Part shown: one piece after another, positions 48,339-57,750 of the stretch
How positions within the stretch are numbered: the stretch's first letter is position 1
How the letters are laid out: each line of letters begins with the position of its first letter
Source: an uncultured Eubacteriales bacterium
GTDB taxonomy: Bacteria > Bacillota > Clostridia > Christensenellales > CAG-138
DNA length: 64,000 nt
Direction: 5' to 3'
NCBI GenBank assembly: GCA_902786465.1
Contig: CADACQ010000007.1
Span: forward strand, 20,600 to 84,599
Program-made: the position numbers and the translations under genes
The notes under the pieces: model-generated
Databases searched by the model: none
What the model was told of the DNA's origin: nothing
The model's input: only the letters and a program-made list of their open reading frames with translations

Positions 48339-49757
48339 ATGCCGTATACGCAGGAGACCGTACATGAGATCGTGGTCAAGCAGCGCCAGTTTTTCCGGAC
48401 CGGCGTCACGCTGGACGTGAACTGGCGCATGGAACAGCTGCGAAAGCTGAAGCAGGCGGTGCTGGACCGCGAGGCCCAACTGGAAGCGGCCCTCTATGAG
48501 GATCTGGGCAAGAGTCCCACGGAGGCGTACCTCTGCGATCTGGGCCCCGTGATCGTGGAGGTCAACGAGATCCTTCGCGGGCTCCGTAAATGGGCCCGGC
48601 CGGAGCGGCATTTCGGCGGTCTCATGTGCTTCCCCAGCACCTCTACCACCGTGTACAAGATGCCCTACGGTGTGTCGCTGATCATCAGCCCCTTCAACTT
48701 TCCCATCCTGCTCACCCTGGGCGTCCTGGCTGCCGCCATTTCGGGCGGCAACACGGCGGTGCTCAAGACCAGCTCCAAGTCCGCCGCCAGCACCCGGGCG
48801 CTGAAGGAACTCGTCGCCGACACCTTCCCGGAGGAGTTCGTGACGGTGATCGACGGGGGCCACGACGTGGCGGACATGTGCCTGGAGGAGCGGTTCGACA
48901 AGATCTTCTACACCGGATCGCCCGCCGTGGCAAAGCACGTGCTGGAGAAGGCGTCCCGTCATCTGACCTCCGTGGCCCTGGAGCTGGGGGGCGAAACCGG
49001 CAACTGGTGCATCGTCCGCAAGGATGCCGACCTCAGGGACGCCGCCCGAAAGATCGCCTTTTTCAAGCTCTGCAACGCGGGGCAGATCTGCATCAACATC
49101 AATCAGATCGCCGTGGCGGAGGAGGTGGCGGAAGCGTTCCTTGACGAGCTTCGGCGGGCCTTCGTTCGGCAGATCGGCGAGAAGCCGGAGCAGAACCCGG
49201 ACTATCCCAAACTCATCACCCCGGCGGTGTACGACAAGTGCGTCCGCCTCACCGAACAGTACCGGGACAGGCTGATCTTCGGCGGCGTCGGGGACAGGGA
49301 AGCCCTCCGCTTTGCCCCCACGGTCCTTTATCCGGTGGGCATGGATGAGGACATCGTGCAGCAGGAGCTCTTCTGTCCGCTGCTGCCGGTGGTCCCCTTC
49401 AGGGACAACGAGACGGACGCCCTGCTGGACGTGATCGCAAAGAGGGAGCATCCCCTGGCGATGTACGTCTTCACCCGTGACAAAGCCTGGGCCCGATCCG
49501 TCATGACCACCCAGCAGTACGGCGGCGGCTGCATCAACGAGGTGTGCATCCACATGATGGTGAAGGGCGTGCCCTTCAACGGCACCGGCCACTCCGGCAT
49601 GGGCGCCTATCACGGGGAATGGGGCTTTCGGGAATTCACCCACCCCCAGACCGTGCTCCTGGGCAGGACCCGGTTCAATCTGTCCCTGCGGGAGCATCCT
49701 TATTCCGGCGACGCCGGCAAAAGGAAGCGTCGGCTGCTGAAATGGTTCGAACGGTAG
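48339..49757 (+). CDS. NAD(P)-dependent aldehyde dehydrogenase (class-3-like)
   Basis: 472 aa with LELGGE and the catalytic Cys context CNAGQICININ. Confidence 0.9.
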   Translation: MPYTQETVHEIVVKQRQFFRTGVTLDVNWRMEQLRKLKQAVLDREAQLEAALYEDLGKSPTEAYLCDLGPVIVEVNEILRGLRKWARPERHFGGLMCFPSTSTTVYKMPYGVSLIISPFNFPILLTLGVLAAAISGGNTAVLKTSSKSAASTRALKELVADTFPEEFVTVIDGGHDVADMCLEERFDKIFYTGSPAVAKHVLEKASRHLTSVALELGGETGNWCIVRKDADLRDAARKIAFFKLCNAGQICININQIAVAEEVAEAFLDELRRAFVRQIGEKPEQNPDYPKLITPAVYDKCVRLTEQYRDRLIFGGVGDREALRFAPTVLYPVGMDEDIVQQELFCPLLPVVPFRDNETDALLDVIAKREHPLAMYVFTRDKAWARSVMTTQQYGGGCINEVCIHMMVKGVPFNGTGHSGMGAYHGEWGFREFTHPQTVLLGRTRFNLSLREHPYSGDAGKRKRRLLKWFER

Positions 49758-49796
49758 GCTGAGCGTCCTTTCGCCTCTGAATAATCGCGAGAAACA

Positions 49797-49819
49797 GGCG
49801 CCGGATCCGATCCGGCGCC
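49797..49819 (+). terminator. hairpin after the aldehyde dehydrogenase gene
   Basis: GGCGCCGGA tccga TCCGGCGCC. Only TT follows before the next -35 element. Confidence 0.5.
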
Positions 49820-49848
49820 TTGACAAATCGTCCCCCGGGATTTATTAT
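49820..49848 (+). promoter_or_regulatory. sigma-A-type promoter of the TetR operon
   Basis: TTGACA (49820-49825), 17-nt spacer, TATTAT (49843-49848). Confidence 0.65.
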
Positions 49849-49862
49849 GAATGTGTTCATAA
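49845..49862. promoter_or_regulatory. palindromic operator candidate (TetR site)
   Basis: TTATGAA-tgtg-TTCATAA, perfect 7-bp inverted arms overlapping the -10 element. Confidence 0.55.
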
Positions 49863-49875
49863 AAGAGGGACGAAC

Positions 49876-50418
49876 ATGCCTAAGATCATCGAAGATGTGG
49901 AGAACAGGATCCTCTGCGCGGCCCGCCAACGGCTGCTGGGGGGAGACCTGTCCTCTTTTTCTGCCCGGGGCATCGCGGAGGACTGCGGCATCGCCGTGGG
50001 CACCATCTACAACTACTACCGGGACAAGGAAAGCCTTATGGCGGCCGTCATGGCCCAGGACTGGCAGGCGGAGCTCACGAAGGCGGGGGAGAGGATCGAC
50101 GCCGTCCCCAGCATCGAGGAGGGCGTCCGCTGCCTTTACGAGGCCATGCGCTCCTTCAGCCGGGTCTATGAGTCCGTCTGGGCCTCCTACCCCACGGGGG
50201 AGGGCTTCGGGAGCCTGTTTCGGACCCGGCATAGGCAGCTCCTCTCTCAGATCGAGGCGCAGCTCTCCGCCCTCTATGCCCGCTTCGGCCCGGTGCCGGA
50301 GAAGGGGCAGCGCATCCTGCTCTCCGAGCTCATCCTGGCCGCCAGCCAGCATCCCGAGGTGGGGCCGGAGGACCTCATTTCATGTATCCGCGGGGGCGTG
50401 GGCCCCTGCGCCCTATAA
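49876..50418 (+). CDS. TetR/AcrR-family transcriptional regulator
   Basis: HTH SARGIAEDCGIAVGTIYNYYRDKESL. Confidence 0.9.
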   Translation: MPKIIEDVENRILCAARQRLLGGDLSSFSARGIAEDCGIAVGTIYNYYRDKESLMAAVMAQDWQAELTKAGERIDAVPSIEEGVRCLYEAMRSFSRVYESVWASYPTGEGFGSLFRTRHRQLLSQIEAQLSALYARFGPVPEKGQRILLSELILAASQHPEVGPEDLISCIRGGVGPCAL

Positions 50419-50445
50419 ACAGCAAACAAGGAGGAACTATAGCGA

Positions 50446-51381
50446 ATGTCCACATTCCAGGAGCTGCGTATCGTCGATAACTTCTATCAAACGTCTCTGT
50501 TCTATCCCATGCCGGCGGTGCTGGTGAGCACCCTCACCGACGACGGGAAGACCACCTGCGGGCCCTACTCCCTGCTCGCTCCCTTCTACGTGGCGGGCAA
50601 GCCCTACTACGCCTTCATGCTGGAGTGCCGCAACTCCTCCAACACCGCCCAGAACCTGATCAAGCACAAGAAGTGCGTCATCAACTTCCTGCCGGACGAC
50701 CGCAAGTCCTTCAAGGAGATGGTCCGCCTGGGCTGGCCCGGGGACACCCCCGCCGAGAAGATGAAGGACTTCCGCTTCCACCTGGAGGACGGCCTTCGCA
50801 AGGCCGAGGACCCGGAGGGCACCTACCCCCAGGTCATCACCGAGGCGGTCCAGGCCGTGGAGTGCACCTGGGTGGACACCCTGGACAACGCCCAGGACGA
50901 CACGCCCATCCCCGAGGGCATGGACCACTACGAGCTGGAGAAGTACCACGACTTCAACGGCATCACCACCCCCTACGGCGCCCACTTCGTGCTGAAGATC
51001 GACAAGATCCTCATGAAGGAGCAGTATAGGAACGCCATCATCAACGGCGTCAAGTCCGGGGATTTCCCCCACCTGCCCGTGGACTACGGCTACCGGGATT
51101 CCAAGAACTTCTGGTACCATAAGCATCGCCGGCTCCTGCCGGAGCTCCTGCCCCAGCGCCAGACCACCGTGGCCAGCGTCCGCTACGCCGCCGACCGGCT
51201 CCAGACCGACGTCCAGTTCACGGACGCGGCCCTCGAAAAGCTGGTGAAGGTGCCCCGGGTGTTCCTGCCCACGGCCCTGAAGGGCTGCGTCAAGTGGGCC
51301 GAGGAGAACGGCGTGAAGGTCATCGACGTGAAGGAGATGGAGATCATCAACGACAAGCGGTCTAAGGAGAAAGGAAAGTAA
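50446..51381 (+). CDS. flavin-reductase-like split-barrel domain fused to a C-terminal PCP_red-like domain
   Basis: N-terminus YPMPAVLVSTLTDDGKTTCGPYS...CVINFLPDD resembles the Flavin_Reduct family. C-terminus FTDAALEKLVKVPRVFLPTALKGCVKWAEENGVKVIDVKEM parallels the BchB/ChlB C-terminal PCP_red signature (W.xEAxxxLxKIPfFVR...A...G...IT). Confidence 0.65.
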   Translation: MSTFQELRIVDNFYQTSLFYPMPAVLVSTLTDDGKTTCGPYSLLAPFYVAGKPYYAFMLECRNSSNTAQNLIKHKKCVINFLPDDRKSFKEMVRLGWPGDTPAEKMKDFRFHLEDGLRKAEDPEGTYPQVITEAVQAVECTWVDTLDNAQDDTPIPEGMDHYELEKYHDFNGITTPYGAHFVLKIDKILMKEQYRNAIINGVKSGDFPHLPVDYGYRDSKNFWYHKHRRLLPELLPQRQTTVASVRYAADRLQTDVQFTDAALEKLVKVPRVFLPTALKGCVKWAEENGVKVIDVKEMEIINDKRSKEKGK

Positions 51382-51384
51382 GCC

Positions 51385-51906
51385 ATGAGCGAATTCGTAC
51401 CGGATTTCCACCATTTCCAGAACTTCTGGATCGAGCAGCAGAAAACGGCTAAGCACATGGACCGGGACGCGGCCTGGGCCCACATCGAGGGCTTTATCAA
51501 GGCCCACAACACCTGCGGCTTCGCCACGGGCTACGGCGACTACATCCGCTGTACCCCCATCGAGTACACCTACATGGACGGCTGCTTCTGGTTCGTCAGC
51601 GAGGGCGGCAGCAAGTTCATCGGCCTCGAGAAGAACCGGAACGTGGGCATGGCCATCTTCGAGTACTACGGCAACCCCAAGGACTCCCACGGCCTGCAGA
51701 TCATGGGCAAGGCGGAGTTCTACAGCAACACCTCCGACGAGTTCAAGAAGCTCCTGGCCTTCAAGGGCATCCCCTACGACGTGCTGAAGGCCGCCGCGGT
51801 GGAGGTGGCCGTGGTCCGGGTGGTGCCCTACCGGTTCGAAATGTACGACACCGACTTCGTAAAGCAGGGCTACGACGTGCGCCAGATCGTGGATAAGGAG
51901 ATATGA
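51385..51906 (+). CDS. pyridoxamine-5'-phosphate-oxidase-like FMN-binding split-barrel protein
   Basis: 173 aa. The pattern CGFATGYGDYIRCTPIEYTYMDGCFWFVSEGGSKFIGLEKNRNVGMAIF fits the PNPOx-like/general-stress-26 family by eye. Confidence 0.6.
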   Translation: MSEFVPDFHHFQNFWIEQQKTAKHMDRDAAWAHIEGFIKAHNTCGFATGYGDYIRCTPIEYTYMDGCFWFVSEGGSKFIGLEKNRNVGMAIFEYYGNPKDSHGLQIMGKAEFYSNTSDEFKKLLAFKGIPYDVLKAAAVEVAVVRVVPYRFEMYDTDFVKQGYDVRQIVDKEI

Positions 51907-52565
51907 ATATGAAGCTGGATCATTCCGATAGGCTCCTGGCCCAACTTAACGAGCTCTTCGACCTGACTCCCTGCCCGCCCTCGGAGTACGAGACCTTCCA
52001 GATGGTGGGCCTGGACTTCAAGGCCCAGGGCTACGAGTCGGAGAAGCTGGGCCACGTGTCCGTGCAGACCGCCTCCGGCATGGGCGGGGCCATGGAGATG
52101 GAGTCCATGATCGTGAACCCCTTTTCCGTGGACGGGCCCCTGTTCTCCCTGGATCTCATCTCCGCCCAGGGCAAGTACACCCTGATGATGGAGCTCTACG
52201 ACACCCTGGTGGACACGCCCCGGGACGAGGCGCCCTTCCAGACCATCAAGGACAGGTACGCCCACATCATGGACATCCCCCACAAGCCCAACTGGTACGA
52301 CGACATCCAGTACCACGCCTCCTGCGCCAAGCTGGCCACGGCGGAGCAGGCCGAGGACCTCTCTAAGCTCATCATGACCTTCGGCCAGCGGTACGTGGAG
52401 CTGTTGAAGGACGCCGCCCCCTGTGACGTAAAGGAGAAGCGGGTGAAGGCCGACGCCTATCGTGACGGCCTGTTGAGCCACGGCGGCCCCGCCACCGACG
52501 CCTTCCTCAAGTTCTGGGGCCCGGAGAAGACCGGGAAGCTGTTTACGGAAGTACTTTTTGGATAA
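51903..52565 (+). CDS. ferredoxin-dependent bilin reductase (FDBR, PcyA/HY2-family)-like protein
   Basis: 220 aa. Colinear by eye with Synechocystis PcyA: YESEKLGHVSV...MESMIVNPFSVDGPLFSLDLISAQG versus YQTPQFRKMHLE...[25 protein letters not shown]. C-terminal FWGPEKTGKLFTEVLFG versus FGEAWAERYMSQVLFD. Confidence 0.6.
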   Translation: MNMKLDHSDRLLAQLNELFDLTPCPPSEYETFQMVGLDFKAQGYESEKLGHVSVQTASGMGGAMEMESMIVNPFSVDGPLFSLDLISAQGKYTLMMELYDTLVDTPRDEAPFQTIKDRYAHIMDIPHKPNWYDDIQYHASCAKLATAEQAEDLSKLIMTFGQRYVELLKDAAPCDVKEKRVKADAYRDGLLSHGGPATDAFLKFWGPEKTGKLFTEVLFG

Positions 52566-52598
52566 AGAAAAAGCAAATACATCAAGGAGGAAAGAAGT

Positions 52599-53432
52599 AT
52601 GAAGGTATTATTGGCAGGAGCCTTCGGCAACCTGGGCTTCGAGATCTTGAAGATTCTGACCGAAAAGGGCTGCGAGGTCGTGGCCGCCGACTTGAAGGAG
52701 CGTCCCGAGAACGGCCTCGAGGGCAAGTACACCTTCCAGGCCATCGACGCCACCAACCCCGAGACCCTCAAGGGCATCTGCGACGGGGTCGACGTGGTCA
52801 TCACCACCATGGGCCTCACCACCGCGTCCACCAAGTTCACGTCCTACGACATCGACTACAGGGGCAACCTGAACCTCTACAACGAGGCCAAAGCCGCCGG
52901 CGTCAAGAAGTTCAACTACATCTCCGTCATCGCCTGCGATCAGCCCGGCGCCGAGAAGGTGCCCATGCTCCACGCCAAGTTCATGCTGGAGAACGAGATC
53001 AAGAAGGGCGACATGGAGTACGTGATCTACCGGCCCACGAAGCCCTACGTGGACAAGGGCGAGATGCAGCTCCTCAAGGGCTATCACGGCGTGAAGGCCA
53101 ACGTGGTGGACTGCCCCGACTTCGCCAAGTTCATCTACGACCACATGCTGGACACCAACAAGCTCTACGAGGTGGGCGGCAAGGAGACCTACACCTACGA
53201 GGAGATGGCCAAGATGTGCTTCCGCGCGGCCGGCAAGCCCTGCGTCATCAAGGACAGCCCCATCTGGATGTTTGGGCTCCTGGCGAACCTCCCCGCCATC
53301 AAGAAGGCCGGCAAGCACGACATCATCCTCTTCTCCAAGTGGACGCTGTCCCATGACCTCGTCGGCAAGGACGAGACCGGCGAAGGCTCCTTCGCCGAAT
53401 ACATCAAAGAATACTTTGGGAGGAAAGAATGA
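52599..53432 (+). CDS. NAD(P)H-binding atypical SDR (NmrA / divinyl-reductase BciA-DVR-like)
   Basis: MKVLLAGAFGNLGFEI Rossmann start. VDVVITTMG...YDIDYRGNLNLYNEAKAAGVKKFNYISV parallels the plant/bacterial DVR core, with a DVR-like C-terminal tail ...GEGSFAEYIKEYF. Confidence 0.6.
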   Translation: MKVLLAGAFGNLGFEILKILTEKGCEVVAADLKERPENGLEGKYTFQAIDATNPETLKGICDGVDVVITTMGLTTASTKFTSYDIDYRGNLNLYNEAKAAGVKKFNYISVIACDQPGAEKVPMLHAKFMLENEIKKGDMEYVIYRPTKPYVDKGEMQLLKGYHGVKANVVDCPDFAKFIYDHMLDTNKLYEVGGKETYTYEEMAKMCFRAAGKPCVIKDSPIWMFGLLANLPAIKKAGKHDIILFSKWTLSHDLVGKDETGEGSFAEYIKEYFGRKE

Positions 53433-54259
53433 TGTTCGAGCTGCTTGCTGAATACATCGGCCAGGTGTGGCCCCTGTTCATGTGGGGCGTCATCATCGTG
53501 GCGGCCATCGGCTGCTGCATGGGCTTCAAGGAGTTCGTCTGGTTCATGTCCGTGGGCTATGGCTTCGCGGTCATGTGCATCGGCGCCTACCTGCTGATCC
53601 TGGGCCTCATCAAGGGGTATCTGACCCCCGCCCGGGGCATCATGGCGGGCCTGTTCGTGATCTACGGCTACCGGCTGGGCGGCTATATCCTGAAGCGGGA
53701 GCTGACCAACGCCGCCTATAAGAAGACGCTGGAGAGCACCGGCTCCGCCAAGGCCATGCCCATCCCCGTGTCCCTGTTTATGTGGATCTACTCCATGTTC
53801 ATGTACACCGCCCAGACCTCCGCCCTGACCTATCGGTACATCAACCAGGCCAAGGACAACCTGTGGGTGTGGATCGGCATCGTGATCATGGCCCTGGCCA
53901 TCGTGGGCGAGGCCACCGCGGACAGGCAGAAGTCCGCCGCCAAGAAGGTGAACCCCAAGCGGTTCTGCGACACGGGCCTCTATAAGATCGTCCGCTGCCC
54001 CAACTACTTCTCCGAGGTCATGTTCTGGGTGGGCGTCACCGTGTCCGGCATCGGCGCCGTCCAGGGCAAGCAGTGGATCATCGTCCTCATCGCCCTGGCC
54101 CTCATCACCTACGTCATGTACAATTCCGCCAGCCGCCTGGAGCTCCGCCACGAGAAGACCTACGGCCTGGACCCCGAGTACCAGAAGTATTCCGATACCG
54201 TGCCCCTGCTCTTCCCCTTCACCAAGCAATTCCACTCCATGAAGGTGTACCGGGACTAA
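53429..54259 (+). CDS. DUF1295 / steroid-5-alpha-reductase-like membrane protein
   Basis: 276 aa, polytopic. C-terminal GLYKIVRCPNYFSEVMFWVG matches the GLy..vRHPNYfGE..W.G signature of this NADPH-dependent C=C reductase superfamily. Confidence 0.75.
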   Translation: MMFELLAEYIGQVWPLFMWGVIIVAAIGCCMGFKEFVWFMSVGYGFAVMCIGAYLLILGLIKGYLTPARGIMAGLFVIYGYRLGGYILKRELTNAAYKKTLESTGSAKAMPIPVSLFMWIYSMFMYTAQTSALTYRYINQAKDNLWVWIGIVIMALAIVGEATADRQKSAAKKVNPKRFCDTGLYKIVRCPNYFSEVMFWVGVTVSGIGAVQGKQWIIVLIALALITYVMYNSASRLELRHEKTYGLDPEYQKYSDTVPLLFPFTKQFHSMKVYRD

Positions 54260-54287
54260 GGATAGCAAGCGATAAGGAGGTACCAAG

Positions 54288-54881
54288 ATGACCGTCCCCA
54301 TGGCGTTGATGGACTTCGTGCCGGTGCTGCTCTTCGGAGCGGCCTGGCTGATCCTCTATAGGGATCTCAAGAACAAGCTGGACCTTTGCTCCGGCGTGCT
54401 GCTGCCCCTGGGGGCCGCTCTGGTGTTCCTGGCTGGGTTCCTGAAGGCCACCTGGAAGATGCAGAACGCCATCGGCGCCGCGCCGGTGGAGCTGTTCAAT
54501 AAGATGATGTTCCCCACCCAGTCCGTGGGCTTCCTGCTCATGGCGGTGGCCATGCTGGCCCTCATGTACGGCAAGCGCAAGAGCGCCCGGTCCCTGACCA
54601 TGGTCTGGGTCATGCTGACGGTCCTGGGGAACCTGGGCGCGTCGGCGGGCCTGGTATGGATCGCCAGCAAGGTGAAGAAGGCCGCCGTGCCTCTGTTCAT
54701 CGTGGCGTTCGTGTGCTCCATGATGATGGGCTACCTCTCCAGCCGCGACTTCGCCCAGGCCTCCATGCACTGGATCGCCCAGAGCGTCAACACCCTGGGC
54801 CAAGCCCTGCTGCTCGTCGGCGCCCTGCTGGTCCACAAGGCGGGCCTTTCCGCCCCCGACGCCCTCAACAAAAAGGCGTAA
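54288..54881 (+). CDS. integral membrane protein of unknown function
   Basis: 197 aa with about six hydrophobic segments, RBS AAGGAGG. Last gene before a strong terminator. Confidence 0.7.
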   Translation: MTVPMALMDFVPVLLFGAAWLILYRDLKNKLDLCSGVLLPLGAALVFLAGFLKATWKMQNAIGAAPVELFNKMMFPTQSVGFLLMAVAMLALMYGKRKSARSLTMVWVMLTVLGNLGASAGLVWIASKVKKAAVPLFIVAFVCSMMMGYLSSRDFAQASMHWIAQSVNTLGQALLLVGALLVHKAGLSAPDALNKKA

Positions 54882-54896
54882 CGACCCCAAAATAGA

Positions 54897-54925
54897 AAGG
54901 ACGCCCCGGATGGGGCGTCCTTTTT
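54897..54925. terminator. bidirectional intrinsic terminator
   Basis: AAAGGACGCCCC ggat GGGGCGTCCTTT flanked by A- and T-runs, between convergent genes. Confidence 0.85.
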
Positions 54926-54929
54926 GCTC

Positions 54930-55973
54930 TTACCAGGCGTTTTCCAGGAGGAAGGTGTCTTTCTCGCTATCCTTCTGGTAGTCGTAGTCGTCGAACCAGG
55001 GGGAGTAGGTGGTCACGTGGATGGACCTGAACAGGGGGTCAAAGGTCAAAATGCGCAGATACCCCAGCCCGTTCTTCTTGTCGTCCTGGAAGTTGTACAT
55101 GAGGGCGTTCACGGTGTGGCCGTCCTCGTAGGTCTTCGCCCAGCGGACAGAACCGTCGTTGTGGCCGCAGAGGACCAGGCGAAGGTTGGGGCAGGTTGAC
55201 AGCAGCTCGCTTTCCAGGGTCTTGCCCATGGGGGTCAGATTCCCCTTGTCCGTCAGGAAGCTGTGGACCAGCAGGATCGCCGGCAGGTCGGCATGGTCCG
55301 TCAGCACCGTCTTGGCCCAGGGGAGATACTCCTTGTCGGTCTGCCAGCCGATGCCCAGCAGCAGCACGTCTTCGCCCGCCGCCGTGAAGGTGTCGTACCA
55401 GCAGACCCCGTCCTGATAGAGCTGATCCCCCTCGTCGGCGGCGCAGAACCCGCAGGCCAGGAAGGCGCTGTAGTCCGTCTTGGTGGCTCCCACGTCGTGG
55501 TTCCCCGCCACGCACCACAGGGGGAGCCGGCCCTCAATGAGGCCGATGGCGGCCTTGGCGTTGTCCCAGTGCCGCTGGGCGTTTCGATTGTCCACGATGT
55601 CCCCGGTCATGAGGACCCCCAGGGCGTTCTGCTCCGCGCAGGCGTTGGCCATATAGGCGAAGACTTTGTTGAACACCTTGGGATATCGGTAGGCGTAGAC
55701 CTGGGTGTCGCTGATCCAGTACAGGCTGAAGGGCGTGGGCACGGGGGTGGGGGAGGGCGTGGGCGTAGCGGTGGGCGTGGGCGAAGGCGAAGCGGTGGCT
55801 TCCACGGCCATATAGTCGGTGACGCGCTCTGAGGCGCTTTGGAGTTGCACCTCCACCTTTAGGGGCGTCTGCCCCGTTTTGACGGCGGCGGCGGGCTGGG
55901 CGTCGCATTTCAGCAGCGGCAGGGACAGGGTGATGAGGATGGTGACGAGCAGGACGCGCAACGAACGAAGCAT
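54930..55973 (-). CDS. secreted metallophosphoesterase (calcineurin-like)
   Basis: Start at MLRSLRVLLV (signal peptide). Pro/Thr/Ser linker, then GDIVDN, AGNHD and CGHNDG motifs. Confidence 0.8.
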   Translation of the reverse strand: MLRSLRVLLVTILITLSLPLLKCDAQPAAAVKTGQTPLKVEVQLQSASERVTDYMAVEATASPSPTPTATPTPSPTPVPTPFSLYWISDTQVYAYRYPKVFNKVFAYMANACAEQNALGVLMTGDIVDNRNAQRHWDNAKAAIGLIEGRLPLWCVAGNHDVGATKTDYSAFLACGFCAADEGDQLYQDGVCWYDTFTAAGEDVLLLGIGWQTDKEYLPWAKTVLTDHADLPAILLVHSFLTDKGNLTPMGKTLESELLSTCPNLRLVLCGHNDGSVRWAKTYEDGHTVNALMYNFQDDKKNGLGYLRILTFDPLFRSIHVTTYSPWFDDYDYQKDSEKDTFLLENAW

Positions 55974-56199: not shown

Positions 56200-57525
56200 A
56201 TGGACATGAAAGGTCTCTTTAACTGGCTGAACAAGACCAAGGTCTTCCGCGACCTGTCGCCGCAGGAGTTCTCTTGGGTGCTGTACGACGTGGGCAACTC
56301 GGCTTATACCATGCTTGCCTGCTCGCTGATCCCGATTTGGTTCAAGGAGCTGGCCATCGGCACGAACCCGGGGCAGATCACCGGCGACCAGGCCACCGCC
56401 TACTATTCCATCGCCATCTCCATCGTGACGGTCATCGTGGCCCTGCTGGGCCCGGTGCTGGGCGCGCTGGCTGACCGCAAGGAGTCCAAGAAGATCTTCT
56501 TCCAGACCACCGTGGCCGCAGGCGTCATCGGCTGCGTCCTCAACAGCTTCACCTGGAGCTGGATGCTGTTCCTCATCGTCTACGTGCTGACCAAGGTGTT
56601 CTATCAGGCGTCCCTGACCTTCTACGATTCCATGCTCAACGACGTGACCACCGAGGAGCGCATGGATGAGGTCTCCTCCTACGGCTACGCCTGGGGCTAC
56701 ATCGGCTCCTGCATCCCCTTCCTGGTGGCCATGGTGGCCTATATCCTGAGCGGCGGCCTCTCTGAGAGCCTGATGCTGTTCTCCCCCTTGGTGGGCAAGA
56801 TCATCGGCTTCGGCGTCACCGCCATCTGGTGGCTGCTGGTGACGCTGCCCCTCATCCGGAACTATCAGCAGAAGAACTACGTGGAGCACACCCACACCTC
56901 CGTGGGCAAGGTGTTCAAAAAGATCTTCGCCACCCTCAAGAAGATCGCCGTCCGGGACAAGAAGGTCCTGTTCTTCCTCATCGCCTTCTTCCTCTACATC
57001 GACGGCGTGGGCACCATCATCGACAACTGCATCAACATCGGCACCGACTTGGGCCTGCCCACCGTGGGCCAGGTGGTGTTCCTGCTGGCTACCCAGGTGG
57101 TGGCCTGGGTCGGCTCGTTGGTCTTCGCCAAGCTTAGCAAAAAGTATAAGACCGTGCCGCTGATCCTGGTCTGCATCGCGGGCTACTTCGCCGTCTGTCT
57201 CTACGCCCTGACGCTGAAGACCCTGCTTCACTTCGGCATCCTGGCCTTCGGCGTGGGCTGCTTCCAGGGCTCCATACAGTCCCTGTCCCGGTCCTACTAC
57301 TCCAAGATCATCCCGCCCGAGAACTCCGGCGAGTACTTCGGCATCTACGACATCTTCTGCAAGGGCGCCTCCTTCCTGGGCTCCGCCGTCATCGCCTGGG
57401 TCAAGCTGGCGGGCGGCACCATCAACATCGCTGTGGCGTCCCTGGCCATCTTCTTCGCCCTGGGCTTCCTGTTCCTAATCATCTCCTCCAAACAGAAGAG
57501 TTTGAACCGTGCTTCCAACGAATAA
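56200..57525 (+). CDS. MFS transporter (UMF1/Atg22-like)
   Basis: 441 aa. N-terminal SWVLYDVGNSAYTM is typical of the UMF1 family; 12 hydrophobic segments. Confidence 0.8.
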   Translation: MDMKGLFNWLNKTKVFRDLSPQEFSWVLYDVGNSAYTMLACSLIPIWFKELAIGTNPGQITGDQATAYYSIAISIVTVIVALLGPVLGALADRKESKKIFFQTTVAAGVIGCVLNSFTWSWMLFLIVYVLTKVFYQASLTFYDSMLNDVTTEERMDEVSSYGYAWGYIGSCIPFLVAMVAYILSGGLSESLMLFSPLVGKIIGFGVTAIWWLLVTLPLIRNYQQKNYVEHTHTSVGKVFKKIFATLKKIAVRDKKVLFFLIAFFLYIDGVGTIIDNCINIGTDLGLPTVGQVVFLLATQVVAWVGSLVFAKLSKKYKTVPLILVCIAGYFAVCLYALTLKTLLHFGILAFGVGCFQGSIQSLSRSYYSKIIPPENSGEYFGIYDIFCKGASFLGSAVIAWVKLAGGTINIAVASLAIFFALGFLFLIISSKQKSLNRASNE

Positions 57526-57527
57526 TT

Positions 57528-57717
57528 CAGTCTGCCGAATCCTGCAGATTCGCCAGACTGAGGCTCCGCCTTCGCTTCGCTTGCAGGTCCCGCTTATACG
57601 CCTGCGGCGTACCGGGCAGCGGGACCTGTAAGGTGTGAGATTCACCGCGCATGTCGCTGAATCTCACATATTCGCAGCCGCGCGTTCTTCCTTCGCAGAT
57701 CGCGTGCGCGCGGCTAC
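57528..57717. other. cluster of four consecutive GC-rich stem-loops in a 225-nt intergenic region
   Basis: CAGTCTGCCGAATC/GATTCGCCAGACTG (57528-57560); CAGGTCCCGCT/AGCGGGACCTG (57584-57628, with inner TACGCC/GGCGTA); GTGAGATTCA/TGAATCTCAC (57635-57667); GCAGCCGCGCG/CGCGCGGCTAC (57675-57717). Confidence 0.7.
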
Positions 57718-57750
57718 ACCGCGCTTGAGAAACTGGAAAGGAACGTAAAA

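Follow-up and report, generated by a model that had tools for sequence, protein, structure and literature searches.

A portable reductase gene module with an optional member of the bilin reductase superfamily in an uncultured anaerobic Firmicute

In a window of 64 kb from an uncultured Eubacteriales bacterium (Clostridia) of the ruminant gut, a TetR-family gene and the six open reading frames behind it (O1 to O6) form one version of a portable gene module. O3, an optional addition to it, represents a new clade within the superfamily of ferredoxin-dependent bilin reductases (FDBRs). We tentatively read it as a substrate-inducible, TetR-repressed reductive operon built on a portable core, whose O3-bearing versions act on a bilin-type molecule, and give this reading a probability of roughly 40%.

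Results

The TetR gene and the six open reading frames all lie on the forward strand, with successive gaps of 27, 3, -4, 33, -4 and 28 nt. This layout had been described correctly from the sequence alone, as had the signals on either side of it. The promoter is of the sigma-70 type (49820-49848, + strand), with TTGACA at 49820-49825, a 17-nt spacer and TATTAT at 49843-49848; it matches the consensus at 11 of 12 positions and is the sole sigma-70-like site within 49500-55300. A perfect palindrome, TTATGAA-TGTG-TTCATAA (49845-49862), overlaps the -10 element and is the only match in the window even when two mismatches are allowed (0.03 expected by chance); it is probably the TetR operator. At the other end, a bidirectional intrinsic terminator (54896-54923) ends both the operon and a convergent metallophosphatase gene; 8 of the 12 base pairs in its stem are G-C, the loop is 4 nt long, and each strand has a T-run.

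Promoter and operator stand out as a phylogenetic footprint in diverging surroundings. Across five related loci both hexamers are invariant, in contrast to the diverging spacer and upstream DNA, and similarity between loci starts at 49816-49819. The palindrome is identical in L001, L002, L003, L004 and L006. Two distant clusters, L011 and L013, have its core, ATGAA-N4-TTCAT, at their operon promoter too, and in distant clusters the operator lies upstream of the first gene, whichever gene that is. The TetR-family repressor (49876-50418, + strand, 180 aa; TetR_N 32.4 bits, threshold 24) is encoded in every complete cluster; its PDB matches cover the DNA-binding domain only and therefore offer no clue to the ligand.

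Products were assigned, protein by protein, with Pfam thresholds, which were exceeded by TetR_N, PNPOx_N, NAD_binding_10/NmrA/3Beta_HSD and DUF1295/Steroid_dh. Together with structure prediction and fold searches, these assignments bore out the fold proposed earlier for O3 and four other proposed folds, and went against a PCP_red-like domain. O1 (50446-51381, + strand, 311 aa) is a flavoredoxin/flavin-reductase-like split barrel with a conserved C-terminal helical region: its Flavin_Reduct score of 22.3 bits lies under the threshold of 27, but a fold search with the predicted model (AF2, pLDDT 79) confirms the split barrel, matching FMN-binding/flavin-reductase proteins such as 1eje, 4z85 and 3bnk. 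The C-terminal PCP_red-like domain once suggested for this protein was not recovered. Pfam gave no match at all for the C-terminal part, even when this was scanned by itself at E <= 10, the O1 family profile picked up nothing in the PDB at E <= 10, BchB/ChlB included, and the top 50 fold matches held no BchB/ChlB chain. The O1 family is very large (more than 7,800 matches), and the gene also occurs alone. O2 (51385-51906, + strand, 173 aa) is, as proposed, a PNPOx-like split-barrel protein (PNPOx_N 30.7 bits, threshold 28.1) with no PDB relative by sequence, and is an accessory gene restricted to some cluster types.

The NmrA-like and DUF1295-like folds proposed for O4 and O5 also held. O4 (52599-53432, + strand, 277 aa) is an NmrA/atypical-SDR NAD(P)H-binding protein (NAD_binding_10 48, NmrA 38 and 3Beta_HSD 29.7 bits, all above threshold), whose stop codon overlaps the start of O5; among solved structures it comes closest to atypical SDRs of a generic kind. 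The copy in the window has lost 30 bp in frame at 53039/53040, and with them the conserved segment GYFYDIAKVF, present in all five orthologues compared, including that of L006 (98% identical); this copy may not work. O5 (53429-54259, + strand, 276 aa) is a core gene encoding a DUF1295/steroid-5-alpha-reductase-like membrane protein (DUF1295 94.5 bits, Steroid_dh 28 bits, both above threshold) with an invariant, cofactor-type C-terminal motif, RCPNY-x2-E; it is 78-80% identical among genomes of 28-62% GC. Its core partner O6 (54288-54881, + strand, 197 aa) is a six-span (6-TM) multi-pass membrane protein of an undescribed family, with several hydrophobic spans and no family match in Pfam or NCBIfam; O6 homologues (36-44% identical) adjoin O5 in most clusters, the human-gut variant included.

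O3 (51903-52565, + strand, 220 aa) is a divergent member of the FDBR/RCCR superfamily, as indicated by its predicted structure and by family profiles. The AF2 model (pLDDT 95.6) contains the alpha/beta/alpha sandwich of FDBRs, and the top 45 Foldseek matches in the PDB are all FDBR or RCCR (TMq up to 0.78). Fe_bilin_red matches O3 colinearly over nearly its full length, though the score of 18.6 bits stays under the threshold of 31. Of 50 diverse relatives, 17 match the same model at E <= 0.01, and O3 family profiles match PebB (6qwq) at 2.8e-4 and 2.4e-5. Asp84 is invariant and aligned with the catalytic Asp of the PebB motif GLDLV. The second FDBR proton donor is missing at the aligned position (GGPATD versus KDPAR), and the alignment, as we read it, holds no equivalent of PcyA His88 or Glu76. 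The proteins form a family of their own, of about 690 clusters at 50% identity.

O3 diverges far faster than its neighbouring genes: nucleotide identity to L003 and L004 falls to 57-75% in this gene alone. Within an allele class dN/dS is 0.14-0.20, which marks purifying selection and thus a working gene; between allele classes it is 0.37-0.75, so that the protein changes at a raised pace there.

The genes recur in no fewer than five arrangements: TetR-O1-O2-O3-O4-O5-O6; TetR-O1-O4-O5-hydrolase-O6-O3; O4-O5-O3-O2-O1-O6-x-SDR-TetR-O3'; TetR-O1-O4-O5-O6-O3; and TetR-O1-O6-O5. Because the same set recurs in shuffled form and the operator ATGAA-N4-TTCAT is conserved, the genes are functionally linked, which supports the TetR-controlled operon proposed from the sequence. 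In 14 fully flanked loci anchored on O5, we counted O6 in 11, O4 in 10, O1 in 7, TetR in 6, and O2 and O3 in 2 each. The core thus consists of O5 and O6, usually with O4 and often with the flavoprotein O1 and TetR; it is portable and more widespread than O3. O3 is an optional add-on and not the centre of the system, being cleanly missing from the otherwise near-identical operons L026, L028 and L034 and from all human-gut variants found, and the window version is the core plus two add-ons, O2 and O3. No substrate-specific neighbour gene is conserved around the clusters; steroid, fatty-acid or flavonoid genes, which could have pointed to another pathway, are not consistently nearby. By isolate name, 7 of 10 species-representative O3-bearing genomes are of ruminant type (four RUG, RGIG from sheep and goat ileum, and one ruminal_MAG).

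Discussion

We infer the chemistry and substrate of the operon from these features. On entering the cell, a lipophilic compound whose C=C bonds are conjugated would free TetR from the operator overlapping the -10 element. At the membrane, O4, O5 and O6 would then reduce an activated (enone- or lactam-type) C=C bond by hydride transfer from NAD(P)H, and O3, where present, would perform a cofactor-free reduction of a conjugated diene or methine, one electron at a time, with electrons from reduced ferredoxin or the flavoprotein O1 and a proton from Asp84. O1 is the flavoprotein partner of the FDBR-like family in the clusters studied here; beside relatives only 25% identical, a Flavodoxin_2/FMN_red protein takes this place. 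That O5 may be an ene-reductase is suggested by its Steroid_dh score, its invariant motif and the precedent of the fungal DUF1295-like protein UsgR, shown experimentally to reduce a pyrone C2=C3 bond (PMC8597850).

The substrate of the O3-bearing versions would most likely be bilin-type, either a biliverdin or urobilinoid of herbivore bile or a chlorophyll-derived phyllobilin, because every characterised protein of the FDBR fold binds a linear tetrapyrrole; we know of no member with another ligand. Several points weigh against this reading. Since O3 is missing from the majority of core modules, the substrate of the core may have nothing to do with tetrapyrroles, and the clusters share no substrate-specific neighbour. 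O3 itself lacks the second proton donor and the His88 and Glu76 equivalents, and O4 in the window is ten conserved residues short. We recognised no enzyme that would open the ring, haem oxygenase included, and the hosts are anaerobes, which makes O2-dependent bilin formation unlikely, so that any bilin would come from outside.

The sequence-only reading had gone further, to a stepwise reduction of the vinyl groups and methine bridges of haem-derived biliverdin or bilirubin by the FDBR-like, NmrA-like, DUF1295 and split-barrel proteins. Its TetR-controlled, linked genes and its FDBR fold in a non-phototrophic anaerobe stand; its three independent tetrapyrrole-associated folds do not. With PCP_red undetectable, and NmrA and PNPOx being generic folds that we could not tie specifically to ChuY, HugZ or DVR, a single tetrapyrrole-specific fold is left. 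The bilin idea hangs on one accessory gene, O3; for the versions that carry it, a tetrapyrrole substrate is plausible. The bilirubin steps, moreover, are now assigned to the Old Yellow Enzymes (OYE) BilV and BilR, the operon has no OYE gene, and the one adjoining the related operon L004 encodes HAVHEGY, not the HGDR motif of BilR. That the majority of core modules and all human-gut variants found are without O3 adds to the case against a haem-derived route, which we consider improbable. Its merits are the retained FDBR fold and central catalytic Asp of O3, the presence of biliverdin besides bilirubin in herbivore bile (PMC13252198), two O3-bearing MAGs from the ileum of sheep and goat, a gut section that lies beyond the inflow of bile, and the still missing enzyme for urobilinogen to stercobilinogen (bioRxiv 10.64898/2026.06.10.731317), a step that would be an enone/lactam-type C=C reduction such as DUF1295-clan enzymes perform.

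Most O3-bearing genomes are MAGs from ruminants, so a substrate from the diet is as likely as one from haem. Rumen microbes turn chlorophyll into phylloerythrin and hydrogenate phytol; to our knowledge no genes have been assigned to either conversion, and our literature search found none. In a chlorophyll-breakdown pathway of herbivore guts, O3 could reduce or bind phyllobilins or pheophorbide-type pigments in the manner of RCCR, the NmrA/DUF1295 pair could reduce a vinyl, enone or phytol allylic double bond, and the alpha/beta hydrolase of some clusters could remove phytol or a methyl ester. The ruminant-type isolate names, RCCR among the significant fold matches and the Abhydrolase_5 gene within the L011/L012 clusters agree with this. 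The argument is purely circumstantial, however: habitat was read from record titles only, the hydrolase is confined to one sub-branch, the core module also occurs in the human-gut contigs L082 and L085, and O3 is no nearer to RCCR than to PebA, PebB or PcyA. We hold this pathway, too, to be quite unlikely. Somewhat less doubtful is a lipophilic substrate outside the tetrapyrroles, be it a steroid or sapogenin from plants, a bile acid, an unsaturated fatty acid with conjugated bonds or an enone of the flavonoid type, with O4 a 3-beta-HSD-like dehydrogenase, O5 a 5-alpha-reductase-like ene-reductase, and O3 a protein with a new ligand or no more than a binding or carrier protein. It draws on the 3Beta_HSD and Steroid_dh matches, the core that stands without O3 at most loci, the UsgR reaction within the O5 clan and the dN/dS between O3 allele classes, which fits shifting ligand specificity. 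TetR regulators commonly sense lipids, and the one here has weak NCBIfam matches to FadR and KstR, confined to the DNA-binding domain. Against such a substrate speak the lack of consistently nearby genes for it, the marginal similarity of O5 to 7c83, a bacterial steroid reductase of solved structure (E = 0.15), and the linear tetrapyrroles of all characterised FDBR-fold proteins.

Set beside the known FDBRs (PebB, PebA, PcyA, HY2, PebS) and RCCR, O3 shares the sandwich, a similar length, colinearity with Fe_bilin_red and PebB, and the invariant Asp on the central sheet where the PebB catalytic Asp sits. It differs in being about 15% identical and below the Pfam threshold, in its unconserved second proton-donor position, in its host, a non-phototrophic anaerobic Firmicute, in having no haem oxygenase, phytochrome or phycobiliprotein partner, and in being an optional, fast-evolving gene that shares its operon with membrane and NAD(P)H reductases. 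O5 likewise has the multi-pass topology, DUF1295 and Steroid_dh matches and C-terminal motif of SRD5A homologues and UsgR, but is only marginally similar to 7c83 and is mostly paired with the undescribed O6 and usually with a translationally coupled NmrA-like O4; we know of no characterised DUF1295/SRD5A member with such an arrangement.

FDBR-family proteins of heterotrophic bacteria, termed pre-PcyA, have been described (Rockwell et al. 2023, PMC10151467; Frascogna et al. 2026, PMC13446030), in papers that mention neither Firmicutes, Clostridia nor the rumen. Pre-PcyA genes, from Proteobacteria, Chloroflexi, Acidobacteria and others, adjoin haem oxygenase, Fe-S, V4R and globin genes, whereas O3 sits among genes for TetR, flavoprotein, NmrA and DUF1295 proteins, and the best sequence match of the O3 family is PebB, not PcyA. 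Both cases place FDBR-family proteins in non-photosynthetic bacteria, with a fold that predates oxygenic phototrophs and occurs outside them. BilR and BilV, which reduce bilirubin methine and vinyl bonds in gut Firmicutes, are OYE flavoproteins, unlike any product of the operon; they resemble the system proposed here in their gut-anaerobe hosts, their reductive tetrapyrrole processing and their small regulated operons.

Operon layout and regulation

Seven co-directional genes on the forward strand make up the operon: TetR (49876-50418, 180 amino acids (aa)), the flavin-reductase-like split barrel O1 (50446-51381, 311 aa), the PNPOx-like split barrel O2 (51385-51906, 173 aa), O3, which resembles ferredoxin-dependent bilin reductases (FDBRs; 51903-52565, 220 aa), the NmrA-like O4 (52599-53432, 277 aa), the DUF1295 protein O5 (53429-54259, 276 aa) and the six-helix membrane protein O6 (54288-54881, 197 aa). 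Intergenic gaps measure 27, 3, -4, 33, -4 and 28 nt; the two negative values are ATGA-type overlaps, between O2 and O3 and between O4 and O5. The genes are preceded by a TTGACA-17-TATTAT promoter (49820-49848), the sole sigma-70-like site in 49500-55300, overlapped by the perfect palindrome TTATGAATGTGTTCATAA (49845-49862), a putative TetR operator that occurs a single time in the 64 kb window even when two mismatches are permitted (chance expectation 0.03). A hairpin terminator with a 12-bp stem and T-runs on both strands (54896-54923) lies at the end of the operon and of the metallophosphatase gene that converges on it. The sequence-only reading had described the promoter with its overlapping palindrome, the TetR gene followed by six ORFs with gaps of -4 to +33 nt, and the bidirectional terminator, all of which were confirmed at these positions. 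G+C content was about 60-64% all along the region, with no compositional break seen; the flanking genes were unremarkable (ALDH, cyclophilin, LysR, Lgt, MFS, GH2, metallophosphatase, Atg22-like MFS transporter, M29 peptidase), and an Rfam search of the entire window returned no match.

No change is seen in either promoter hexamer or in the operator across five related loci, while the spacer and all upstream DNA have diverged. The core of the palindrome, ATGAA-N4-TTCAT, recurs at promoters of distant clusters, preceding another first gene in one of them (L013). A TetR gene with a palindrome at its own promoter, kept among relatives, is consistent with a TetR-repressed operon. The TetR protein itself matched TetR_N with 32.4 bits (threshold 24), and its PDB and NCBIfam matches were confined to the DNA-binding domain, giving no clue to the ligand. 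In a sheep-ileum MAG (L002, 7280-7470), promoter and operator are intact, O1 is deleted and TetR is cut to 22 codons; with the repressor truncated and its operator in place, O2-O3-O4-O5 are therefore presumably constitutive in this locus.

By alignment, the operon behaves as a cassette. The loci become similar right at the -35 box (window 49816-49819), the window being ~95% identical to RUG472 (locus L006) from 49819 on, and the upstream neighbours vary. An ALDH gene lies upstream in the window, L003, L004 (inverted) and L008. L001 and RUG472 carry an aldehyde:ferredoxin oxidoreductase (AOR), an Fe-ADH/ferredoxin fusion and an ABC transporter that, judging from its Pfam families, is probably of the tungstate type. 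L004 additionally holds an SDR and a divergent enoate-reductase-like gene combining Old Yellow Enzyme (OYE) and Pyr_redox_2 domains. This recurrence of aldehyde-oxidising genes is suggestive; since similarity begins at the -35 box and the flanks differ, we rejected them as members of the system.

Recurrence of the gene set in other genomes

A scan of species-representative genomes with a narrow O3 alignment, which covers close O3 types rather than more divergent ones, found O3 relatives in ten genomes, all of them MAGs from Clostridia, Christensenellales, Erysipelotrichaceae or Anaerovoracaceae. Seven of the ten have ruminant-type isolate names; habitats of loci were judged from record titles. 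Beyond the order TetR-O1-O2-O3-O4-O5-O6, the genes were found as TetR-O1-O4-O5-O6-O3, as TetR-O1-O4-O5-alpha/beta-hydrolase-O6-O3 followed by a 423-aa protein, and as O4-O5-O3-O2-O1-O6-membrane protein-SDR-TetR followed by a second O3 paralogue. Because the same gene set recurs reordered and its regulation is conserved, there is good evidence that the operon genes form a single TetR-controlled functional unit. The neighbourhood conservation to which the sequence-only reading had looked was thus borne out, genes recurring in differing orders with the operator conserved.

O3 as a candidate deep branch of the FDBR/RCCR superfamily

O3 had been proposed to be colinear with FDBRs, and this assignment held in both sequence and fold comparisons. 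Against Fe_bilin_red (PF05996), O3 gave a colinear match (residues 40-219 to model positions 38-227/228) of 18.6 bits, so that the Pfam check yielded a hit under the curated threshold of 31, as did the best orthologue scanned (L008, 29.5 bits). Seventeen of 50 diverse O3 relatives matched the model at E <= 0.01 (best 9.6e-10), and part of the 76 relatives of ~214 aa from the first O3 search were already tagged PF05996. The AF2 model of O3, built from a 34-sequence alignment (pLDDT 95.6, pTM 0.92), has a predicted FDBR/RCCR alpha/beta/alpha sandwich. In a Foldseek search against the PDB, its best 45 matches were all PebB, PebA, PcyA, HY2, PebS or the related RCCR (E down to 1.7e-9, TMq 0.60-0.78), with coproporphyrinogen oxidase ranking next. 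The O3 family profile reached Guillardia PebB (6qwq) at 2.8e-4, improving to 2.4e-5 with a broader profile. When 1.84 billion representatives were searched exhaustively with a profile, 689 clusters matched at E <= 1e-3, 224 of them at E <= 1e-30, giving a family size of ~690 as counted in clusters at 50% identity.

FDBRs carry a catalytic Asp on the central beta-sheet (Asp105 in PcyA/PebS, Asp99 in PebB) and a second proton donor, which is an Asp of the C-terminal helix in PebA/PebB/PebS/HY2 or His88/Glu76 in PcyA. HMM alignments place Asp84 of O3 ('PLFSLDLI') on the Asp of PebB 'PFLGLDLV', which we take to be the central catalytic residue. Asp84 does not vary among the 34 O3 sequences. In the 50 diverse members it is one of the positions with at least 90% conservation, the others being G50, G62, M64, D77, P79, E97, W131, K179, L190, G194, G195 and G206. 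At the second-donor position, PebB 'KDPAR' aligned to O3 'GGPATD', with Gly where Asp is expected and an invariant Asp199 four residues further on; by reading, the O3 family alignment shows neither a His nor a Glu conserved where PcyA has them. Relatives at only 25% identity adjoin a Flavodoxin_2/FMN_red protein and have His replacing Asp84. Pfam and NCBIfam searches of the operon and its flanks found no haem oxygenase or other bilin-source family.

FDBR relatives in heterotrophs have been described (PMC10151467, PMC13446030), in phyla other than that of O3 and in a different setting, beside HO, Fe-S, V4R and globin genes. Firmicutes are mentioned in neither paper, and when we searched the literature for rumen or Firmicutes genes resembling FDBRs, no relevant report came up. 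O3 fits best as a new deep clade within the FDBR/RCCR superfamily, outside every named FDBR family.

Products of the remaining genes

O1 scored 22.3 bits with Flavin_Reduct, below the threshold of 27, and its AF2 model (pLDDT 79) has a predicted FMN-binding split barrel, the first ~200 residues matching FMN-binding/flavin-reductase proteins (1eje, NbaA, flavoredoxin, PheA2; 99 PDB matches at E <= 0.001). The split barrel claimed earlier for O1 is thus retained, though below the Pfam threshold; the PCP_red-like C-terminus claimed with it is not. Pfam gave no PCP_red match at E <= 10 to the whole protein or to the C-terminal 70-135 residues alone, a 14-sequence family profile matched no PDB chain at E <= 10, and BchB/ChlB were not among the top 50 fold matches, the domain being too small for a whole-model search to exclude it. 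We regard the resemblance as an unsupported by-eye impression. With PCP_red never detected, and with NmrA and PNPOx being generic folds, the three tetrapyrrole-associated folds originally counted in the operon come down to one. The O1 gene also occurs solo in many Firmicutes. In L004 (6522-7452) it is broken into a pair of overlapping frames, both tblastn and the profile search recovering it in two parts, which points to a frameshift or a misassembly.

Earlier assignments for the next genes agreed with the profile searches. O2 matched PNPOx_N with 30.7 bits (threshold 28.1) and is a predicted generic PNPOx-like protein for which a PDB sequence search found no solved relative. O4 exceeded the Pfam thresholds for NAD_binding_10, NmrA, Epimerase and 3Beta_HSD, as expected of an NAD(P)H-binding NmrA-type protein, and its PDB matches were generic atypical SDRs only. 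The window copy of O4 has a clean 30-bp in-frame deletion at 53039/53040, losing ten conserved residues (GYFYDIAKVF) that each of the other five orthologues compared retains, that of RUG472 (98% identical) among them; this copy may be impaired or an assembly variant. O5 scored 94.5 bits with DUF1295 (threshold 20.4) and 28 bits with Steroid_dh (22.6), and its hydrophobic spans and invariant RCPNY-x2-E motif place it in the DUF1295/steroid-5-alpha-reductase clan as a putative reductase; a PDB sequence search returned 7c83 alone (E = 0.15). O6 matched no Pfam family, and an NCBIfam scan of the operon proteins added nothing specific.

A core module with O3 as an accessory

An independent metagenome scan anchored on O5 yielded 80 loci, which were annotated using a profile for each of the seven proteins. 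Fourteen loci extend at least 4 kb upstream and at least 2.5 kb downstream of O5 and count as fully flanked; among these, O6 was present in 11, O4 in ten, O1 in seven and TetR in six, with O2 and O3 in two each. Six loci consist of O4-O5-O6 alone, in genomes of 28-51% GC and with O5 52-82% identical to that of the window (most 78-82%). TetR-O1-O6-O5 accounts for three, TetR-O1-O2-O4-O5 with O3 cleanly missing for two, and O1-O4-O5-O6-O3, TetR-O1-O4-O5-O6-O3 and O5 alone for one each; L034, among all 80 loci, is a third locus without O3. The TetR-O1-O6-O5 variant, which has neither the NmrA-like nor the FDBR-like gene, recurs in many contigs of the L080-L101 series (for example L082, 1237-4319, and L099, 5582-8795, ~61% GC), with O5 44% identical to that of the window, and two contigs of this type among the 80 loci are titled 'human gut metagenome'. 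O3 is therefore an accessory and not the hub of the system, whose core is O5 and O6, usually with O4 and often with O1 and TetR. Flanking genes of the core-only loci were considered as a functional clue and dropped, as they are mutually unrelated and have nothing in common.

O3 also stands apart in its evolution. Compared with L003 and L004, nucleotide identity falls to 57-75% in O3, versus mostly 90-99% elsewhere and 80-83% in part of TetR; at the protein level, identity to L003 is 98% for O1, 99% for O2, 58% for O3, 95% for O4 and 93% for O5. Against L003, L004, L005 and L007 (window 51900-52600), O3 proteins are 55-58% identical and the rest of the operon mostly 85-99%, so that at least two O3 allele classes exist; some clusters contain two O3 paralogues. 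Within a class, dN/dS is 0.14-0.20, indicating purifying selection and therefore a working gene. Between classes, dN reaches 0.34-0.40 and dS 0.5-1.0 (ratio 0.37-0.75), compared with dN <= 0.1 and dS 0.15-0.5 in neighbouring genes. This pattern fits either a burst of fast protein evolution or the replacement of alleles, as might accompany a shift in ligand specificity.

Possible function

To our knowledge, all characterised proteins of the FDBR fold make or degrade phototroph pigments or belong to bilin-sensor clusters, and every one of them binds linear tetrapyrroles; because of this binding, a bilin-type substrate is, by analogy, our best single guess for the O3-bearing versions. As to its source, the ruminant bias of O3 genomes is compatible with pigments from chlorophyll or with biliverdin of the herbivore, whose bile contains it (PMC13252198). 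The sequence-only reading had gone further, proposing stepwise vinyl and methine reduction of haem-derived bilins. For bilirubin, these steps belong to the OYE enzymes (PF00724) BilV and BilR, the latter with an HGDR motif, whereas the operon contains no PF00724 protein; the proposal is thus partly pre-empted, with the FDBR-fold member in the operon as the part that survives. We also rejected a link to BilR/BilV through the OYE-Pyr_redox_2 neighbour in L004, as HAVHEGY replaces HGDR and the gene is confined to that locus. Overall, the earlier observation was largely right and its interpretation found partial support: both the operon and the FDBR fold are real, PCP_red and a central position for O3, which is an add-on, fell away, and the specific haem-bilin pathway is unproven.

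The DUF1295 clan includes steroid 5-alpha-reductases. UsgR, a fungal ene-reductase with experimental proof, belongs to the same clan as O5 (PMC8597850). By analogy with both, the core would use NAD(P)H to reduce an activated C=C bond of a lipophilic compound. O3 would contribute a further reduction, of a conjugated system, with electrons from ferredoxin or a flavoprotein. For the core, a non-tetrapyrrole substrate is a serious rival. In a more specific reading, to which we assign a probability of only about 12%, the widespread module of DUF1295 and the six-helix protein, with NmrA, flavoprotein and TetR partners, would be an unrecognised gut-bacterial pathway of late linear-tetrapyrrole reduction, and the O3 family would have branched off early within the FDBR superfamily, in anaerobic heterotrophs. 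One candidate step for this late pathway is end-ring C=C reduction from urobilinogen to stercobilinogen, for which the enzyme is not yet assigned (bioRxiv 10.64898/2026.06.10.731317); another would be a comparable step in herbivores, acting on phyllobilins that derive from chlorophyll. The O3 family would then use flavoprotein/ferredoxin donors and be of the 'archae-FDBR' kind that bilin-evolution researchers report seeking (PMC13446030).

What is new is an FDBR-superfamily clade in a new host group and genomic context, attached to a widely distributed, uncharacterised reductase module. A ~690-cluster family in anaerobic gut Firmicutes, wired to a repressor, flavoproteins and a putative membrane ene-reductase, would carry the FDBR fold into new biology and supply bilin-evolution studies with a new deep branch. 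The core, strongly conserved over genomes of 28-62% GC and present in ruminant and human gut metagenomes, is a candidate for one of the unassigned gut reductions, such as the formation of stercobilinogen, the chemistry of phylloerythrin or phytol, or the hydrogenation of sapogenins or fatty acids; a literature search on genes of phylloerythrin formation found no relevant report. The conserved operator and repressor offer a ready biosensor for an inducer search.

Further observations at the related loci

The 423-aa soluble protein after O3 (L011, 8767-10038; L012, 8801-10081) matches no Pfam family and has two ExxH-like motifs (EEEHVTQYE, ELGHLHK) reminiscent of di-iron carboxylate proteins. 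YitT_membrane/DUF2179 genes lie a few kb from O3-type genes in four different cluster types (L011, 14163-15170; L013, 11396-12316; L018, 7651-8511, convergent on the end of the FDBR-like gene; L022, 8654-9517), with mutual identity of only 22-27% and none in the window. In an Anaerovoracaceae MAG (L009, 4860-7840), an NfnAB-like pair (a DHODB_Fe-S_bind protein and a GltD-like Fer4_20/Pyr_redox_2 protein) and an NAD kinase lie directly upstream of and divergent from O3-O4-O5-O6, and would be a ferredoxin/NADH-to-NADPH supply unit. Finally, a hairpin-rich intergenic element of ~205 nt (window 57523-57730; MFE -102 kcal/mol, z = -5.9) separates the MFS transporter and M29 peptidase genes, with no Rfam family and no second copy within the window. 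A 78% identical copy is inserted between O1 and O2 in L007 (338-542). The element may belong to a class of small structured sequences that are mobile or repetitive.
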